From: a virus | Taxonomy: Duplodnaviria > Heunggongvirae > Uroviricota > Caudoviricetes | DNA: 39,953 nucleotides | Strand: one strand, 5' to 3' | IMG/VR virus record: IMGVR_UViG_2563366923_000006 | The notes under the pieces: generated by a model | What the model was told of the DNA's origin: nothing | Databases searched by the model: none | What the model saw: the letters and a program-made list of their open reading frames with translations, nothing else | Program-made: the position numbers and the translations under genes | Shown: positions 4,400-39,577 of the stretch, piece after piece | How positions within the stretch are numbered: the stretch's first letter is position 1 | Layout of the letters: each line of letters opens with the position of its first letter

Positions 4400-5092
4400 T
4401 TAATTATGTCTCTTAAGGGTTTGCGACTGACTGATTAAGACCTTTCCAAAGACCATGAATCGGTGTTCGTTTTCGCTAGTAATTCCCCATTCACGGTAAA
4501 TCTGGTTATCAGAAATCACCAGCAGTTTGTCAGGAATCATTTGAAGTCTTTTAACGTATATTTTGTCATCAAAACCAAAGACATATATACCATCACCATC
4601 AAACTGATTGATGCTGACATCAACGAAGATGAGATCTCCTGGCTCAATGGTTGGACACATACTGTCCCCACGAACGTTGATAACTTTGATGTGATTGGCT
4701 GGTCGTCCGCCGAACATTGATACAGCATTATCAGTTCTGTATTCGATGGCATGAATCACATCAATGACATCACCGCCCTGGATAAGGCCATTTCCCGCAC
4801 TGGCACTGATATCCAACATTTCAATACGGAACACATCCTTCACCTGCGCAACATCCTCATCATTACTGTTTTTATATACAGTATTACTTTTGAGGGCAGA
4901 GGTAAAGAGATCAGCAATATCAACACCTAAGCTCTTGGCAATATTACTCAGTGTTTGTTCGGTAAATTGTTTCTGCTTACCCGTTTCTAAGCGCGAGATG
5001 TTCGCCGCATCTACTCCTATTGCTTCAGCGAGATCGGCGATTTTCATGTTCTTCGCTTGGCGAAGTTGTCTGACTCGTTTTCCTATGTTCAT
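4400..5092 (-). CDS. cI: CI-like phage repressor (XRE HTH + S24 LexA-like peptidase domain)
   Basis: N-terminal HTH; C-terminal S24-type domain; divergent from a Cro-like gene. Confidence 0.85.
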   Translation of the reverse strand: MNIGKRVRQLRQAKNMKIADLAEAIGVDAANISRLETGKQKQFTEQTLSNIAKSLGVDIADLFTSALKSNTVYKNSNDEDVAQVKDVFRIEMLDISASAGNGLIQGGDVIDVIHAIEYRTDNAVSMFGGRPANHIKVINVRGDSMCPTIEPGDLIFVDVSINQFDGDGIYVFGFDDKIYVKRLQMIPDKLLVISDNQIYREWGITSENEHRFMVFGKVLISQSQTLKRHN

Positions 5093-11681: not shown

Positions 11682-12734
11682 ATGAAAAATACTGTAAAAA
11701 TAAACAGTGTTGATTTAATCAACGCTGATTGCCTGCATTTTATTCAGTCCCTGCCTGATGATTCCATTGACCTGATTGTTACCGATCCGCCTTACTTCAA
11801 GGTGAAACCTAACGGTTGGGACAATCAGTGGAAAGGGGACGAAGATTACCTTAAGTGGCTGGACCACTGTCTGGCCCAGTTCTGGCGGGTGTTGAAACCT
11901 GCCGGAAGCCTTTACCTGTTCTGTGGGCATCGCCTGGCATCTGATATTGAGATCATGATGCGTGAACGTTTCAACGTGCTTAACCATATCATCTGGGCGA
12001 AGCCGTCCGGACGTTGGAATGGGTGTAATAAAGAAAGTCTGCGCGCATATTTTCCTGCCACAGAGCGCGTTCTGTTTGCTGAACATTACCAGGGGCCATA
12101 TCGCGGCAAAAGTGACGGCTATGCGGCAAAAGAAAGGGAACTCAAACAGCACATAATGGCACCGCTGATATCGTATTTCAGGGATGCTCGTGCCGAACTG
12201 GGTATAACGGCAAAACAAATTGCCGAAGCCACAGGTAAGAAAAATATGGTTTCCCACTGGTTTGGTGCCAGTCAGTGGCAGTTGCCGAATGAGGCTGACT
12301 ATCGGAAGTTACAGGCACTGTTTTCCCGTATAGCGGCAGAGAAGTTTCAGGAACAACAACTGGAACAACCACACCACCAGCTGGTGGCATCTTATGATTC
12401 ACTGAATCGCAAATATTCTGAATTGCTGGATGAGTTTAAATCTCTCCGGCGCTATTTCTCCGTATCAGTTTCCGTGCCTTATACCGATGTCTGGACGCAT
12501 AAGCCCGTTCAGTTCTATCCGGGTAAACATCCGTGCGAGAAACCGGCGGATATGCTCCGGCAAATAATCAATGCCAGTAGTCGACCTGGTGATCTGGTTG
12601 CTGATTTCTTTATGGGATCCGGTTCCACAATAAAAGCAGCAATGGCGCTGGGGCGTCGGGCGTTAGGTGTTGAACTTGAGTCAGAGCGGTTTAATCAGAC
12701 GGTGAAAGAGGTAAGTGAACTGGTGGGGAAATAA
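11682..12734 (+). CDS. Orphan DNA N6-adenine/N4-cytosine methyltransferase (DPPY motif)
   Basis: IVTDPPY motif and later FxGxG; no adjacent restriction gene. Confidence 0.8.
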   Translation: MKNTVKINSVDLINADCLHFIQSLPDDSIDLIVTDPPYFKVKPNGWDNQWKGDEDYLKWLDHCLAQFWRVLKPAGSLYLFCGHRLASDIEIMMRERFNVLNHIIWAKPSGRWNGCNKESLRAYFPATERVLFAEHYQGPYRGKSDGYAAKERELKQHIMAPLISYFRDARAELGITAKQIAEATGKKNMVSHWFGASQWQLPNEADYRKLQALFSRIAAEKFQEQQLEQPHHQLVASYDSLNRKYSELLDEFKSLRRYFSVSVSVPYTDVWTHKPVQFYPGKHPCEKPADMLRQIINASSRPGDLVADFFMGSGSTIKAAMALGRRALGVELESERFNQTVKEVSELVGK

Positions 12735-33196: not shown

Positions 33197-33865
33197 ATGC
33201 ATCGTATAGACACGAAAACCGCGCAGAAGGATAAGTTCGGCGCGGGTAAGAACGGTTTTACCCGTGGTAATCCCCAGACTGGTACGCCTGCCACCGATCT
33301 GGATGATGACTACTTTGACATGTTGCAGGAGGAGCTTTGCAGCGTTGTGGAGGCATCCGGTGCCAGCCTGGAGAAGGGGCGGCATGACCAGTTGCTTACC
33401 GCACTTCGCGCACTGCTGTTAAGCCGCAATAATCCGTTTGGTGATATCAAATCGGACGGCACGGTACCAACGGCTCTCGAAAACCTTGGTTTAGGAGATA
33501 TCAGTGCTACAGGTGTTGCGACAGGTAGTATGGGCGGAACCGGATATGCCATATTTCCGATGATGATTGGCGGTGCACGTAAGACTTTTATTATGCAATG
33601 GGGATTGCTGACGCCTCTGAAATCAGGTGGCTATGTGAATATTAACCTTCCTGTCGCTTTTCCTACTATGGTGATGCAGGCATATGCAACACATGATAAT
33701 GCGACACTAAACACACGCCCGACAGTATATGCAATTACTACAACAAGCCGAACCACTATCACTGCGACGGCGACGTGCTTAGATGCTGGCTCAGTGGGCG
33801 CTACAGTGACACGCAGTAGTGACGATACTGCGTGTTACGGTCGTTATTTTGCAATAGGGTGCTGA
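33197..33865 (+). CDS. Tail fibre protein; constant N-terminus fused to variable C-terminus inside invertible segment
   Basis: [10 protein letters not shown]-terminus typical of e14/Mu-type fibres; recombination site inside the gene. Confidence 0.8.
33475..33498. repeat. Invertase crossover site, left (hix/gix-like; GAAAACC-TT-GGTTTAG)
   Basis: Inverted partner at 35337-35362; encodes ENLGLGD. Confidence 0.65.
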
Positions 33866-33866
33866 A

Positions 33867-34310
33867 ATGAATCTTAAATATTTTTCTCCATCTGAAAATG
33901 CGTTTTATGCCGGGGAGCTTAAAGAAAGCTATATCGCTGCTGGCTCATGGCCTTCTGATGCCTCGGAGGTTGATGAAAGTCTTTATCTTGAGTTTATCGA
34001 TAAACCGCCAGCAGGTAAGTATCGAGGAGTGGATAATGCAGGAATGCCCTGCTGGCTTGAAATTCCTCCTCCCACAGTAGAGGAAATGGCATCGAATGCA
34101 GAGAATATAAGACAGCAGCTCATTGATAAGGCAAATGTTTATATAAACAATCGTCAGTGGCCGGGAAAAGCAGCGATAGGCCGTTTAAAGGCAGATGAAC
34201 TGGAACGATATAACCTTTGGCTGGATTATCTGGACGCACTGGAACTGGTCGATACTTCCGGTGCGCCAGATATTGAATGGCCTACGCCTCCGGCAGCTCA
34301 GGCCAGATGA
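33867..34310 (+). CDS. Tail fibre assembly protein (Tfa)
   Basis: C-terminal LDYLDALELVDTS-APDIEWP motif. Confidence 0.75.
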   Translation: MNLKYFSPSENAFYAGELKESYIAAGSWPSDASEVDESLYLEFIDKPPAGKYRGVDNAGMPCWLEIPPPTVEEMASNAENIRQQLIDKANVYINNRQWPGKAAIGRLKADELERYNLWLDYLDALELVDTSGAPDIEWPTPPAAQAR

Positions 34311-34884
34311 CATCCGGCGCGGTGCTGGTATCCGTTGCCGTCACCGCGTCAATGTAATCCAGCACAGCGTTTAATCGGGTGGTTTCTGTCTGCGTCAGCT
34401 TCCTCCCGGCCTGCAATTTCAGTTGAATCAGACTAATGGAAGCCATTGCAGTATCAATCAGTGACTGACGCTGTGCTTCTGCCGCGCTTACTGCGGCGCT
34501 ATGCTGTGCCTCAGTATCTGTCACCCATTTCTCACCATCCCATTTATCGTATGGCGTTAACGGGGCGATAGTGGTTGTATTTTCGGGGTAATCACCCAGA
34601 GCTGTGATTTCTTTGGCGTCTCCCGTTTCGGTGTTATAGACGATTTCACCGCGATGGTCTGGCACATATTCCCATGAGTTTAAATCTGCCGAACGGCAGA
34701 TTGCATAACCAGCCTTATGTATACCAGGTTCATCCAGACAGGAATATGCCGGGATACCAACACCAACGGCAAGATATTCATTTGAAGTGGAAATATATTC
34801 CCGAGTTTCACCATCATAGCTATAGACGGTAATATCCCCCGCCTTCGTGGCAATAAGCTCGCTATTTAATACAGCGTTATCCAT
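34282..34884 (-). CDS. Alternative tail fibre assembly protein (Tfa')
   Basis: Shares C-terminal LDYIDAVTATDTSTAPDVIWP motif with Tfa. Confidence 0.75.
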   Translation of the reverse strand: MDNAVLNSELIATKAGDITVYSYDGETREYISTSNEYLAVGVGIPAYSCLDEPGIHKAGYAICRSADLNSWEYVPDHRGEIVYNTETGDAKEITALGDYPENTTTIAPLTPYDKWDGEKWVTDTEAQHSAAVSAAEAQRQSLIDTAMASISLIQLKLQAGRKLTQTETTRLNAVLDYIDAVTATDTSTAPDVIWPELPEA

Positions 34885-35349
34885 TATGCAGCCCTCACGA
34901 TAAAGTTAAATGCAATATTTCGCGCACGTGTTTCCGTTGATGTTCTGGCAACAAGTGATGCATCAAAATAATAATTCGCCTGTTTATATGTACCACCTGT
35001 CGCAATTGGTGTGAGATTTGGTTGCACTATTGAAGAGGTAAATGCGCCGAAAGTATTATTATTTGTCCCCGTGGTCATATCAAAAAAGCTACCTGTAATA
35101 TTTTGCAGCGTATCGCTCTGAGCACTCAATAACGCTCGCCCACTGTCCACTCCACGCCCATCATCCCAGCCACGAATAAACTCACCCCGCAGATCTGGCA
35201 GCACAAGACCGGGGTAAACCAGTGCCAGCTTCGGATAATTTTCAGCTGCAAATGGAGCGCCGTTACATTTCAGCCATCCTGTTGGTGGAGTGGCTAAAGG
35301 CCACGGAACAGGCACACCAACGGGTAATGCCGAACCTTCTCCCAAACCA
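34884..35349 (-). CDS. Alternative tail-fibre C-terminal cassette (Sv'), expressed only after inversion
   Basis: Begins at crossover (INVGLGEGSA); LPDLRGEFIRGWDDGRG tail-collar-like motif. Confidence 0.65.
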
Positions 35350-35362
35350 ACGTTTATGAAAA
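35337..35362. repeat. Invertase crossover site, right (CCAAACC-AA-CGTTTAT)
   Basis: Reverse complement matches left site around the TT core. Confidence 0.65.
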
Positions 35363-35416
35363 TGCAGAAATAGCGCGCAAATGGCATCGTTCCTGTTTTT
35401 GTCAGGAGGAGCTATC

Positions 35417-35973
35417 ATGCTTATTGGCTATGTTCGCGTATCAACAAATGACCAGAACACCGATCTACAACGTAATGCGTTGAACTGTGCAGGATGTGAG
35501 CTGATTTTTGAAGACAAGATAAGCGGTACAAAGTCCGACAGACCAGGACTGAAAAAGCTGCTCAGGACATTATCGGCAGGTGACACGCTGGTGGTCTGGA
35601 AACTGGACCGACTGGGGCGCAGTATGCGGCATCTTGTCGTGCTGGTGGAAGAGTTGCGCGAACGTGGCGTTAATTTTCGCAGCCTGACGGATGCTATTGA
35701 TACCAGCACACCAATGGGGCGCTTTTTCTTTCATGTGATGGGTGCCCTGGCTGAAATGGAGCGAGAGTTTATTGTCGAACGTACTAGGGCGGCTTTGCCG
35801 CAGCACGACAAGAAGGGAGGAACGGTGGGCGAAAGCCAAAGCTGACAGTAGAACAATGGGGGCAGGCTGGCAGGTTGATTGAATCGGGAATATATCAGCA
35901 GCAAGTCGCACTGATTTATGATCTGGGTATTTCAACGGTGTATAAAAAATTCCCTGTAGCAAGTAAACCATAG
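35417..35973 (+). pseudogene. Serine DNA invertase (Pin/Gin/Hin family), apparently frameshifted, separating the catalytic domain from the C-terminal HTH
   Basis: Catalytic domain intact to ~35790, then premature stop at 35845; the +1 frame continues as a Gin-like HTH (PKLTVEQWGQAGRLIESGI...) to 35973. Confidence 0.65.
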
Positions 35974-35999: not shown

Positions 36000-36695
36000 T
36001 TATGCACTATTTTTAGGTCTTGTAACCCGAGGTGGGAGTTGTTTGGTTATATGTTCAAGTGATTTTTTGCCCAAGATAGTTCTTTGGACAAAACTTTCTA
36101 TAGCTTCTAGCATTTGTTCGAACTCACTTTTATTCGGGCTCCAACTGCGATGTGCGGCGGCGTTTCCTGCATCAATTACTGAAGATATAACGCATGCCTC
36201 AGTGTCGCCTATGACTCCATCTTGTTTTAATTTTTCAACTTTTTCACCAAGCGGCAAACCGGGGTGAATTTGTAACAGTTCAGCAGTTCGATCAAAAATC
36301 GTCCGTAAACCGATGGACGAAAGAATGAAATGGTCAGAAGTATATGAAGAATACATTTCATTAAATATTTGAAAGAGCTGACGATCAACTGATTCAAGCT
36401 TGGATAACCATATCGGAGCTTGAAATGTTTCAGCGGCAGGATAGGTAGTGATCATATCTATAGGCGTTTCTACAAATTCACCATCACGATATTCGTGGGT
36501 AGTATGCTCACTGAAGTGTTCGTTGTGGTGATAGAAGACAGTATCACAGCCATTGCATTGGAGTAGGTGATGGTAATGGTACCCATAAACTGGATATTGG
36601 GAATCCTCCCAGCTAGTGGTTAGCTTCCCATGCACAGTGCAGTTACGTAACCCACCGCATGTAGGGCAAAGAGCCTTGAGTATTTCCTTTTTCAT
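36000..36695 (-). CDS. Cargo protein: N-terminal zinc ribbon (CxxC...CxxC) plus C-terminal helical domain resembling DUF4145
   Basis: Cys pairs C10/C13 and C47/C50; C-terminal GDTEACVISSVIDAGNAAAH resembles the DUF4145 GNxxAH motif (recalled); AT-rich. Confidence 0.55.
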   Translation of the reverse strand: MKKEILKALCPTCGGLRNCTVHGKLTTSWEDSQYPVYGYHYHHLLQCNGCDTVFYHHNEHFSEHTTHEYRDGEFVETPIDMITTYPAAETFQAPIWLSKLESVDRQLFQIFNEMYSSYTSDHFILSSIGLRTIFDRTAELLQIHPGLPLGEKVEKLKQDGVIGDTEACVISSVIDAGNAAAHRSWSPNKSEFEQMLEAIESFVQRTILGKKSLEHITKQLPPRVTRPKNSA

Positions 36696-36770
36696 AAAGT
36701 CTCTGATTCTATATGTAGGTTAAGACCACTATTAGCTATACGGACCTAATAATCAATCGTGTGCAGATAC

Positions 36771-36797
36771 AAAAAAGCCCGTATAGCGGGATTTCAT
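36771..36797 (-). terminator. Weak hairpin with T-run on the minus strand
   Basis: CCCG-CTATA-CGGG followed by TTTTTT on the minus strand; only a 4-bp stem. Confidence 0.3.
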
Positions 36798-37043
36798 GTC
36801 ACTAAGGGCCGCGGCTACTTTGCGTATCTTTTTTGTCTTCTCACCGTCTGGCCGGTATTTTGCTGAGACTGCTTATTTCCAGTTTTTACTAGTGCTGTAC
36901 TGGTACTGCCCAATCATGATTGGTGGGGGACGGAGTTGAGACCGCAGCCACGTCGTATGCAAGAACGCGCTGCGGTTGGCTGGTGAACTTTCGATAGTGC
37001 GAGTATTGAATGATTTCCAGCCGTTACAGATTTTACGTGTTTA

Positions 37044-37292
37044 TTAGTGAACAAACCACTCGTCAGCAGATTCCCAGGTATCTTTCAGAGTCTCCTGAAC
37101 AAAAGTTTTTGCAGAATCCTTATCTGCGGTGCGTGTAACAGAAAGGCCATCATTGCTGGTGGCTTTTACTAACACCTCAACATCGTCATAACGCTTACTG
37201 ATGCGTCGGGTTAATTCTTCCTTTAACGCATCCACAGCACCGGTTGGCATTTTAGTCATTTTTTCTTTGGCTATGCAGATTTCAATACGCAT
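37044..37292 (-). CDS. dinI: DinI-like DNA-damage-inducible protein
   Basis: MRIEICIAK ... [11 protein letters not shown] matches the DinI family pattern; GGAGGG SD. Confidence 0.8.
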
Positions 37293-37307
37293 AAAAGTCC
37301 CTCCATA

Positions 37308-37323
37308 CTGTGTTTGTATACAG
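37308..37323. promoter_or_regulatory. LexA box (CTGTGTTTGTATACAG)
   Basis: CTGT-N8-ACAG match directly upstream of the dinI-like SD. Confidence 0.7.
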
Positions 37324-37335
37324 CATTATTTTTAA

Positions 37336-37351
37336 CTGTATGGATAAACAG
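37336..37351. promoter_or_regulatory. LexA box (CTGTATGGATAAACAG)
   Basis: Second CTGT-N8-ACAG match 12 bp from the first. Confidence 0.65.
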
Positions 37352-37353
37352 TG

Positions 37354-38451
37354 TCAAGAGGTCTTATTTCTGCTCCTTTGGAGCTCTTCAAAACGATTAT
37401 GTAAAGATTTCGGATACAGTTCGGTATATACCTGCCATAGCACGTTTAATGAACGATGCCCTGTAACTTGGGCGACTTCCTCAATACTAAAACCAGCCTC
37501 AAATAAGCGACTTGCCCCTTCTCTACGCAAATCATGGTATCGCAGATCCTTAATACCTAATTTGCTTCTTACTCTCTGAAATCCCGCAGTAACAGAAGTG
37601 CTGTTATATGGAAAAATGAATTCCGATTTTTGGGGCTGTCGTTGGACGATATCCCAGGCTTCCCCAAGCAAGGCTACTTTCATGTGGTTACCTTCCTTTT
37701 TGCGTGGATCTTTCCTGTCTCTTACGAGTATAGATTTTTGTTCCTGGTCGAGATCTTCCCATCGTAACCGGCATACTTCTCCGATTCGCATACAGGACCA
37801 TACAGAAAATTTGAGGATATCAACGAACGGAATTTTTGAGCATTTATGAGTAGATCGTTGTTGAAGGCCTGCAATGAGCATGTCCAGTTCATCAGATGCT
37901 GGTCTACGATTACGACGGTTTGATTTACCAATCAAACCAAGTTTAAGTAGATATGGGCGAGCGCTTTTCGCCGGGTTTGATGTGTAATTAATTCCGTATA
38001 CAGGTTTGGCCGCATCCAGAACACTGCCAAGATAACTAACATCGTGGCTGACTGTTGCAGGACCTGCACCAGCGTTGTTTCTTAGCCTGCAATGTTCAAT
38101 TACGTCATTTTCTGTCAGTTCAGATAGTTTGATCGCGGAGATGTCACTATCCATAAGCAGTTCCAGCACATATCTTTTAGTACGGCCTGCTTTACCTCCG
38201 GCATTTGGGTCATTTAAATATTTGTGTAGTAAGTCACGGACTGTAAGTCCGTCAACTGCATTTGATGATGGAATGCCATATAGATCTAATTCCATCACTT
38301 TCTGTGTGCCCCATGTTTTGGCATGAGCATGTTTAGGGAATGTTTTGCTTTCCCTGTAAGTGATAACACCTTTTTCTTTGATAATCACATTACAGCGATA
38401 GCGTGGTGTGCCATCGGATTTTAGTCGTTTCTCTATGTTATAGTACGCCAT
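37354..38451 (-). CDS. int: Tyrosine integrase (dusA-associated type)
   Basis: 365 aa with C-terminal catalytic motifs (HDLRR ... VTGH ... Y); abuts dusA. Confidence 0.9.
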   Translation of the reverse strand: MAYYNIEKRLKSDGTPRYRCNVIIKEKGVITYRESKTFPKHAHAKTWGTQKVMELDLYGIPSSNAVDGLTVRDLLHKYLNDPNAGGKAGRTKRYVLELLMDSDISAIKLSELTENDVIEHCRLRNNAGAGPATVSHDVSYLGSVLDAAKPVYGINYTSNPAKSARPYLLKLGLIGKSNRRNRRPASDELDMLIAGLQQRSTHKCSKIPFVDILKFSVWSCMRIGEVCRLRWEDLDQEQKSILVRDRKDPRKKEGNHMKVALLGEAWDIVQRQPQKSEFIFPYNSTSVTAGFQRVRSKLGIKDLRYHDLRREGASRLFEAGFSIEEVAQVTGHRSLNVLWQVYTELYPKSLHNRFEELQRSRNKTS

Positions 38452-38468
38452 TACACGACCTCGTTATT

Positions 38469-38505
38469 TCGGGTTCCCATAAAACGTGGGAACCTGTGCG
38501 GGAAC
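38469..38505. repeat. Three copies of a 9-bp GGGAACC-containing motif (one inverted) in the int-dusA intergenic region
   Basis: CGGGTTCCC 38469-38477, GTGGGAACC 38486-38493, GCGGGAACC 38498-38505. Confidence 0.5.
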
Positions 38506-38539
38506 CTAACGCGAGAAAAATAGCCTGAAATGTTCAAAA

Positions 38540-39577
38540 ATGCACGATAATCATGAAACACAAAAAATTAATCAAACCAGCGTGATGCCTGAAAAAACTG
38601 GTGTTTACTGGAATTCTCGGTTTAGCATTGCTCCTATGCTCGACTGGACGGACAGACATTGCCGCTATTTCTTGCGTCTGCTTTCCCGCAATACGTTGCT
38701 GTATACTGAAATGGTAACTACAGGGGCGATTATTCACGGTAAAGGTGATTACCTGGCGTATAGTGAAGAAGAACATCCGGTAGCGTTGCAACTCGGCGGT
38801 AGCGATCCGGCGGCGCTGGCGCAGTGTGCGAAGCTGGCAGAAGCGCGTGGATATGATGAGATCAACCTGAATGTCGGCTGCCCGTCTGACCGGGTGCAGA
38901 ACGGCATGTTTGGTGCGTGTCTGATGGGTAATGCGCAGCTGGTTGCCGACTGCGTGAAAGCGATGCGCGATGTGGTGTCGATTCCGGTGACGGTGAAAAC
39001 GCGTATTGGCATCGACGACCAGGACAGCTATGAATTTCTCTGCGATTTCATCAACACCGTTTCCGGCAAAGGCGAGTGTGAGATGTTCATCATCCATGCA
39101 CGTAAAGCCTGGCTTTCGGGGTTAAGTCCGAAAGAAAACCGTGAGATCCCGCCGCTCGATTATCCGCGTGTGTATCAACTGAAGCGTGACTTTCCGCATC
39201 TGACAATGTCGATTAACGGTGGTATCAAGTCGCTGGAAGAGGCCAAAGCACACCTGCAACATATGGATGGCGTGATGGTCGGGCGCGAGGCGTATCAGAA
39301 TCCGGGTATTCTGGCGGCGGTAGACCGGGAGATCTTTGGTTCCTCGGATATCGATGCCGATCCGGTGGCGGTAGTGCGCGCCATGTATCCGTACATTGAG
39401 CGTGAACTCAGCCAGGGGACGTATCTCGGTCATATTACCCGGCATATGTTGGGCTTGTTCCAGGGTATTCCTGGCGCGCGGCAGTGGCGGCGTTATTTAA
39501 GTGAAAATGCCCATAAAGCGGGTGCAGACATTAATGTGCTGGAACACGCGCTCAAACTGGTGGCGGATAAGCGTTAA
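38540..39577 (+). CDS. dusA: tRNA-dihydrouridine synthase A; 5' end probably element-derived
   Basis: 345 aa typical DusA; first ~35 codons AT-rich unlike the rest of the gene. Confidence 0.9.

Follow-up and report, generated by a model that had tools for sequence, protein, structure and literature searches.

The DNA analysed here (hereafter the window, 39,953 bp in full) corresponds to a lambdoid prophage that is integrated into E. coli at dusA, at the 5' end of this gene, and it carries genes for CI (HTH and S24 domains), Cro, CII and Q as well as tail genes. A gene for a tyrosine integrase (int) of the dusA-specific family described in PMC4482086 and a dinI-like gene are both found on the minus strand, where they are separated by a gap of 61 nt that extends from the int stop codon to the dinI ATG at 37292. 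This gap contains two perfect CTGT-N8-ACAG palindromes, located upstream of a GGAGGG motif (Table 1). The initial annotation had described two such 16-bp elements, 12 bp apart and placed ahead of the ribosome-binding site of a prophage-borne dinI-like gene, in the interval between int and dinI. Coordinates, spacing and gene context agree with the sequence, and the element is indeed prophage-borne, next to an integrase at the dusA attachment site.

Table 1. Features of the dinI module and of the two other LexA-box regions of the window (HI, heterology index; minus-strand features of the module are listed in the direction of transcription)
Feature	Coordinates	Strand	Basis or remark
dusA-specific tyrosine integrase gene (int)	37354..38451	-	PF00589; directly upstream of the module, context only
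-35 hexamer TTGACA of the dinI promoter	37352..37357	-	Consensus scan; int stop codon TGA (37354-37356) inside
Distal LexA operator, 20-mer CACTGTTTATCCATACAGTT	37334..37353	-	Fills the promoter spacer; HI 6.27
Distal LexA box core	37336-37351		Plus strand reads CTGTATGGATAAACAG; perfect CTGT-N8-ACAG palindrome
Linker between the two dinI boxes	37324-37335		12 nt; plus strand reads CATTATTTTTAA
Alternative -10 hexamer TAAAAA	37329-37334	-	Consensus scan; 17-nt spacer
-10 hexamer AAAAAT	37328..37333	-	Consensus scan; 18-nt spacer
Proximal LexA operator, 20-mer TGCTGTATACAAACACAGTA	37306..37325	-	Over the predicted transcription start and early 5' UTR; HI 5.87
Proximal LexA box core	37308-37323		Plus strand reads CTGTGTTTGTATACAG; perfect CTGT-N8-ACAG palindrome
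Shine-Dalgarno motif GGAGGG	37299..37304	-	Sequence; 6 nt before ATG
dinI-like gene, 82 aa	37044..37292	-	PF06183, E 1.1e-19
dinI 3' UTR, two stem-loops	36941..37043	-	Fold -30.3 kcal/mol, z -2.1
Second stem-loop, 13-pair terminator-like hairpin	36941-36976	-	3' end of the mobile module; no U-run follows in the window
Putative back-up intrinsic terminator CCCGCUAUACGGGCUUUUUUG	36770..36794	-	Sequence and stem; ahead of the DUF4145 gene
DNA methylase ORF (N6_N4)	11682-12734	+	First large ORF between the Q antiterminator and lysis genes
Methylase LexA box TACTGTAAAAATAAACAGTG	11690-11709		HI 5.39; codons 3-9 of the methylase ORF
cI gene	4400-5092	-	HTH and Peptidase_S24 domains; SfII-type repressor
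cI-internal LexA 20-mer TACTGTATATAAAAACAGTA (cI strand)	4864-4883		HI 2.05; identical to the MG1655 umuDC operator

The assignment of the 82-aa product to the DinI family, already proposed in the initial annotation, is firm. The match to PF06183 covers the whole profile (positions 1-63 of 63, residues 16-80 of the protein) with 71 bits for a cut-off of 24.2. In addition, the protein is 47% identical to K-12 DinI and matches the structures 1GHH and 7YWA (E 3.8e-13). The contacts between DinI and RecA seen by cryo-EM involve a hydrophobic pocket (L13, L21, W71, W77, F78) and an acidic patch (E24, E69, D76) of DinI (PMC9926225). In the prophage protein, the pocket residues correspond to M15, L23, W73, W79 and F80, and those of the patch to E26, D71 and E78. 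Thus, five of the eight RecA-contact residues are identical and the three others are conservative replacements. Because these contact residues are conserved, the prophage protein is likely to bind the groove of the RecA filament.

To evaluate the two palindromes as LexA operators, a symmetrised heterology index (HI) matrix was built from 17 E. coli K-12 SOS boxes, namely those of umuDC, recA, sulA, recN (three boxes), uvrB, dinI, lexA (two boxes), uvrA/ssb, dinB, yebG, dinG, uvrD, ruvAB and dinD. Each of these boxes was confirmed verbatim beside the named gene in MG1655 regions. The matrix is our own rebuild and is distinct from the published 19-site table of Lewis et al.; its scale is nevertheless close to the published one, the umuDC operator having an HI of 2.05 here versus a published value of 2.77 (cited in PMC2994835). 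In a 71-kb MG1655 control, the 17 training sites came on top and the next candidate had an HI of 12.15. Both dinI boxes have the 8 core positions of the 20-bp SOS-box consensus TACTGTATATATATACAGTA perfect, with flanking bases TG..TA and CA..TT, and their HI values fall within the 2.05-9.53 range of the 17 known K-12 operators. They therefore rank with good natural operators, such as those of dinI, sulA, yebG and uvrA. The initial annotation had suggested that both sites be scored with a LexA weight matrix; by this score they are strong predicted operators, not low-scoring sites.

The AT-richness of the intergenic region is the one point in favour of the view that the palindromes arose there by chance and have no LexA function. 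This view is extremely improbable. CTGT-N8-ACAG occurs four times in the window for 0.42 expected, a number that none of 100 dinucleotide-preserving shuffles of the window reached. The HI values of the dinI boxes are in the operator range, and an empty gap separates them from the background: once the four boxes are set aside, the best of the 39,934 20-mers of the window has an HI of 11.66 (mean 39.7, sd 6.5). Finally, the box cores are invariant in the 33 copies of the module described below, and LexA boxes are near-universal upstream of dinI genes.

A consensus scan places the two boxes within a promoter directed toward dinI. Read on the minus strand, the region starts with TCT-TGA-CA, in which the int stop codon is embedded in the TTGACA hexamer, followed by CTGTTTATCCATACAG, TT, AAAAAT and AATG; it continues with CTGTATACAAACACAG, TAT, GGAGGG, ACTTTT and the dinI ATG. 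TTGACA and AAAAAT, 18 nt apart, match the sigma-70 consensus at 10 of 12 positions, on this strand only. The distal operator lies between the two hexamers and the proximal box begins 4 nt past the -10, around a transcription start predicted at ~37320 from the position of the -10. Such a placement corresponds, as judged from the predicted promoter, to the classical occlusion geometry. It should be noted that AAAAAT is a weak -10 hexamer, which counts against the reading favoured here. The GenBank record of phage mEp460 annotates this dinI promoter, without the LexA boxes.

The boxes begin 3 nt past the int stop codon, which the -35 hexamer overlaps, and LexA boxes, being palindromic, could in principle act on either strand. 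This raises the question of whether the boxes serve int rather than dinI, with LexA forming a roadblock to int transcription or terminating it, or controlling an antisense promoter into int, so that excision would be coupled to SOS. However, no plus-strand promoter-like site was found by the consensus scan in 36500-38700, and the position of the boxes is the one anticipated for occlusion of the minus-strand promoter. Moreover, the same unit of -35, box, -10 and box precedes dinI in module copies that lack int and have unrelated DNA upstream. Because promoter and boxes accompany dinI in this way, they are assigned to dinI and not to int, and control of int is very unlikely. The proposal of the initial annotation that the boxes control the dinI-like gene thus agrees with the position of the boxes on a predicted promoter pointing into dinI.

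Comparison of dinI modules in differing contexts also delimits the module. Similarity between copies begins at the -35 hexamer and stops after the 13-pair hairpin, about 100 nt past the dinI stop codon, where the flanks diverge; the matches to phages mEp460 and SKA5 end at this hairpin as well. Because homology has such sharp boundaries at the -35 and at the hairpin in different contexts, the unit that runs from the -35 through dinI to the hairpin is, as read from these alignments, an autonomous promoter-gene-terminator cassette, or "moron". The dinI unit (37044-37360) is present in 1769 of the 5426 complete E. coli genomes, with up to 7 copies per genome, and the int-dinI segment adjoins dusA in 705 of them. 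The unit is also found in mEp460, SKA5, Lys8385Vzw, CP-1639 and many Stx-converting phages.

The cassette is predicted to be monocistronic. Three-frame translation of the minus strand (36700-37100) revealed no credible ORF over the 270 nt that separate the stop codon of dinI from the terminator; the sole candidates before the terminators start with TTG and encode 46 and 32 aa. This bears on another reading, in which dinI would stand at the front of an antirepressor system controlled by LexA and DinI would assist an antirepressor that triggers induction, as in the Gifsy dinI-gfoA/gftA-irsA operons or in Tum of phage 186. The LexA-controlled phage dinI loci that have been studied best are built in this way (PMC3121763). 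Nevertheless, no convincing ORF follows dinI in any frame, the boundary of the module comes directly after the hairpin, and the 82-aa protein consists of the DinI part only. In addition, the CI of the window has an S24 self-cleavage domain and would need no antirepressor. A Gifsy-type dinI-antirepressor operon was rejected on the basis of the missing downstream ORF and of the Peptidase_S24 domain of CI, and the antirepressor interpretation as a whole is very improbable.

Conservation was studied with 33 distinct copies of the 454-nt module. None of the 16 positions of the CTGT/ACAG cores varies. By comparison, variation affects 25 of the 59 remaining upstream positions (Fisher p 0.0007) and, within dinI, 24 of 83 third codon positions (p 0.01); these two p values overstate independence since the copies are related. 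Within the 12-nt linker, the AAAAAT of the -10 is the invariant part and the bases on either side of it vary. The centres of the two boxes are 28 bp apart, a distance that is reduced to 27 bp in two copies by a 1-nt deletion and amounts to 29 bp in one relative. Because a 28-bp spacing is not helically phased and varies from 27 to 29, cooperative binding would not be expected; the spacing argues for independent rather than phased, cooperative binding of LexA to the two boxes. In the coding sequence, the first and second codon positions are nearly invariant (3 of 166 vary, as compared with 24 of 83 third positions), from which it follows that the DinI protein is under purifying selection.

These alignments also inform on the possibility that the main product of the transcription unit is an RNA, the ~100-nt 3' UTR being processed into an Hfq-type sRNA. 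A precedent exists in Klebsiella, where DinR is cut from the dinI mRNA's 3' end and represses ftsZ (PMC10907235). The 3' UTR of the prophage gene has two stem-loops and is kept in most copies, and both arms of the stem of the terminal hairpin are changed in some of them (as seen by inspection, without formal count). On the other hand, conservation of the UTR does not exceed that of synonymous codon positions (mean minor-allele fraction of 0.08 versus 0.04), and in some copies it is wholly replaced right after the stop codon. A search of Rfam with 36600-37500 gave no family, only a sub-threshold CssrB hit at 18.6 bits for a gathering score of 76. Together with the purifying selection acting on the coding sequence, which indicates that the protein matters, these data make a DinR-like function of the transcript unlikely.

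The copies of the module further differ in the proximal operator. In most other copies (loci L004-L083, compared with 37306-37351 of the window), the proximal 20-mer starts with TACTGT, and a TTTATC within the distal box is located 17 nt upstream of it; in the window, the 20-mer starts with TGCTGT. TTTATC and TACTGT may form a possible second, overlapping promoter with the geometry of umuDC and sulA in those copies, and the G at position 2 should disable it in the window.

How general this organization is was studied with 80 dinI loci from different Enterobacterales species, a box being defined as a site with an HI below 11 within 200 nt upstream of the gene. Scans of IMG/VR with the DinI and CI proteins of the window returned only 99-100% identical proteins, and sequence diversity was drawn from a species-level genome scan and an alignment-seeded scan. 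At least one LexA box is found upstream of dinI in 72 of the 80 loci, typically a single one which, like that of K-12, is about 19 nt away from the ATG. The eight loci without a box comprise six from Yersinia and one from Trabulsiella (match not starting at ATG), as well as one truncated gene. Because 72 of 80 loci carry a box, LexA control is predicted to be general among dinI genes. A pair of boxes enclosing the -10 was found in only three E. coli/Shigella prophage-type loci of this set (L097-L099); L097 and L099 have strong boxes, and those of L098 are weak (HI 9.9 and 10.5). The double operator thus appears, among the loci compared, specific to this prophage clade.

Altogether, it can be proposed that the locus is an SOS-controlled prophage moron, in which a sigma-70 promoter gated by two independent strong LexA operators would drive a monocistronic dinI. 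We give this reading, which relies on sequence comparisons, a probability of about 0.8. As long as the lysogen suffers no DNA damage, LexA dimers bound at the two sites would exclude RNA polymerase, and this repression would be independent of the CI repressor of the phage; occupancy of the sites by LexA in vivo is what their scores lead us to presume. Upon DNA damage, RecA filaments would promote self-cleavage of LexA and the LexA pool would fall. Transcription would begin only once both sites are vacated. Low leakiness and a steep switch-on would be expected, since both sites must be free, and this may be the benefit of having two sites. Compared with the single-box host dinI, the response of the double-box promoter would be steeper and probably later. 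Transcripts may end at the terminal hairpin, and the stem located further downstream, ahead of the DUF4145 gene, is a putative second terminator for the dinI transcript. In EHEC transcriptome papers searched for expression of prophage dinI, either the chromosomal dinI only was covered or repeated prophage genes were excluded.

Once produced, the 82-aa protein would bind the RecA filament groove like host DinI and would add to the host pool, as a phage-encoded extra dose of a RecA-filament stabiliser and coprotease modulator. A likely consequence would be the tuning of slow RecA-dependent cleavages, those of UmuD and of the S24-type CI of this prophage and of co-resident prophages, because DinI, LexA, UmuD and lambda-type CI make use of common features of this groove. 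The initial annotation had suggested that such a DinI homologue could modulate RecA activity and hence prophage induction. This is plausible in view of the conservation of the eight contact residues and of the self-cleaving S24 type of the prophage repressor. It should, however, be noted that when the dinI homologues of Gifsy were removed by non-polar deletion, induction was not significantly affected (PMC3121763).

The dinI module is carried by about one in three complete E. coli genomes, frequently as several copies, and by Shiga-toxin phages. When such strains are exposed to an SOS-inducing antibiotic, the amount of the RecA-filament modulator that is released should be several times the chromosomal dose. 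The extra DinI could shift the processing of UmuD, and thereby mutagenesis, as well as the kinetics of cleavage of CI-type repressors, and thereby induction of Stx phages. The authors of an Stx-phage genome study raised an effect of DinI on these processes and asked whether the predicted dinI is expressed (PMC8456039). The operators described here suggest when expression of prophage dinI should occur.

LexA-controlled phage dinI genes are already known in Gifsy and PhiKO2; what is specific to the present clade is the pair of strong operators flanking the -10. The dinI homologues of Gifsy-1, -2 and -3 belong to LexA-repressed dinI-antirepressor-irsA operons (PMC3121763, Lemire et al., 2011; PMC8072944, Merida-Floriano et al., 2021), and induction values and HI are given for Gifsy dinI in the latter study. 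As in Gifsy, the gene studied here belongs to the DinI family, is carried by a lambdoid prophage and has a LexA box in its promoter. Gifsy dinI is silent in the lysogen and its induction upon DNA damage does not depend on the phage repressor, a behaviour that the prophage module would share. However, Gifsy has only one box, located about 19 nt away from the ATG, whereas two strong boxes flank the -10 here; Gifsy dinI is polycistronic with a small downstream antirepressor, whereas the prophage gene is predicted to be monocistronic; and the Gifsy repressors are not cleaved, whereas the CI of the window carries an S24 domain.

The chromosomal dinI of E. coli (b1061) is also LexA-repressed, and its product is of the same family, with RecA-contact residues that the prophage protein has kept. 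The K-12 promoter, however, has one box (ACCTGTATAAATAACCAGTA, 19 nt from the ATG), with no second site below HI 18. As read from the sequence, this box overlaps the -10, whereas the prophage boxes are on either side of it, and the two promoters cannot be aligned. Homology of the prophage promoter to the K-12 dinI promoter was thus rejected.

In PhiKO2 and in Serratia phage OS31, LexA-regulated din-like genes are located beside tail-fibre genes and opposite to them (PMC7556043). The prophage module has the same type of regulator and occupies the same niche, where the tail-fibre region ends, with an opposite orientation and near the integrase. A single LexA site is reported for these two phages, and OS31 has a translationally coupled downstream gene. 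The presence of more than one LexA dimer per promoter, associated with tighter repression, recalls the lexA, recN and colicin promoters. The spacing differs, with 21 bp for lexA and 22 and 18 bp for recN in MG1655 versus 28 bp for prophage dinI, where the -10 lies between the sites; in colicin genes, the LexA boxes overlap (PMC2994835). Finally, Tum of coliphage 186 is a LexA-controlled antirepressor with a DinI-like C-terminal half (PMC3121763), that is, another LexA-controlled phage gene containing a DinI module. Tum has 146 aa with an N-terminal antirepressor half, whereas the prophage protein has 82 aa and is DinI-only, which excludes a Tum-type fusion. Our literature search retrieved no paper describing the LexA boxes of this E. 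coli dinI module. The module is an ordinary instance of a phage cargo gene wired to SOS, and extends Gifsy biology rather than revealing a new principle.

The two remaining perfect boxes of the window are strong by HI as well, and both are inside genes. The first one lies at nucleotide 209 of cI, in the hypervariable linker between the HTH and S24 domains. It was compared in 64 distinct homologues of this gene, which belong to the SfII, Salmonella "Adana" and Klebsiella P7641 types and come from phages of Escherichia, Shigella, Salmonella and Klebsiella; the IMG/VR members of this sample are 77-100% identical to P7641 CI. In all 64 genes, the best LexA 20-mer (HI 1.1-6.7) is located at exactly offset 209, and the second-best site has an HI of at least 16. 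The linker residues that flank the box are hypervariable, and conservation is limited to T-V-x-x-x-S, which the arms of the box encode. The box is accompanied by TTTACC-N17-TACTGT, which matches the TTGATC-N17-TACTGT found upstream of the MG1655 umuDC and sulA boxes, where we take TACTGT to be the -10. The consensus scanner reported no sigma-70 promoter at the cI-internal box, only this weaker umuDC/sulA-like geometry, and no conserved in-frame start codon with a Shine-Dalgarno motif emerged after the box. The site could be an internal SOS promoter, possibly for a truncated CI, or a roadblock. Our literature search retrieved no description of this site.

The second box lies at the beginning of the methylase ORF. 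Phage Flotzy, whose homologue is 81% identical, has a box at this offset too (HI 5.42), and N15 gp52 (56% identity) lacks it; no umuDC-like -35 is present upstream of the box. These two sites raise the tentative and rather doubtful idea that the dinI tandem operator is one node of a phage-encoded LexA sub-regulon with sites at dinI, cI and the methylase gene. If LexA did act at all three sites, this phage family would read SOS both through LexA and through RecA-stimulated cleavage of CI. LexA would then gate DinI, the methylase and either a cI roadblock or an internal cI transcript, encoding for example a truncated C-terminal CI fragment that would act as a decoy or as a dominant negative.

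Several features of the surroundings of the module deserve mention. The K-12 map places the dusA attachment site approximately 4 kb downstream of the lexA-dinF operon of the host, at a distance of approximately 10 kb from the uvrA/ssb SOS box (comparison of 38452-39577 of the window with locus L084); the insertion of a prophage with four LexA operators close to lexA is probably a coincidence. On the other side of the module, a Gin/Pin-type DNA invertase gene (35381-35973) is apparently frameshifted, the ORF of the resolvase domain ending at 35845 and an ORF in another frame covering 35875-35973, and RefSeq marks the equivalent gene as a frameshifted pseudogene. It adjoins oppositely oriented pairs of tail-fibre and tail-fibre-assembly genes (33197-35387), an invertible segment that is probably locked. 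Between the invertase gene and dinI, the minus strand encodes a 231-aa DUF4145 protein with N-terminal Cys-rich motifs (36000-36695). Phage SKA5, although otherwise collinear, lacks this gene, which thus has the look of a cargo gene inserted separately.
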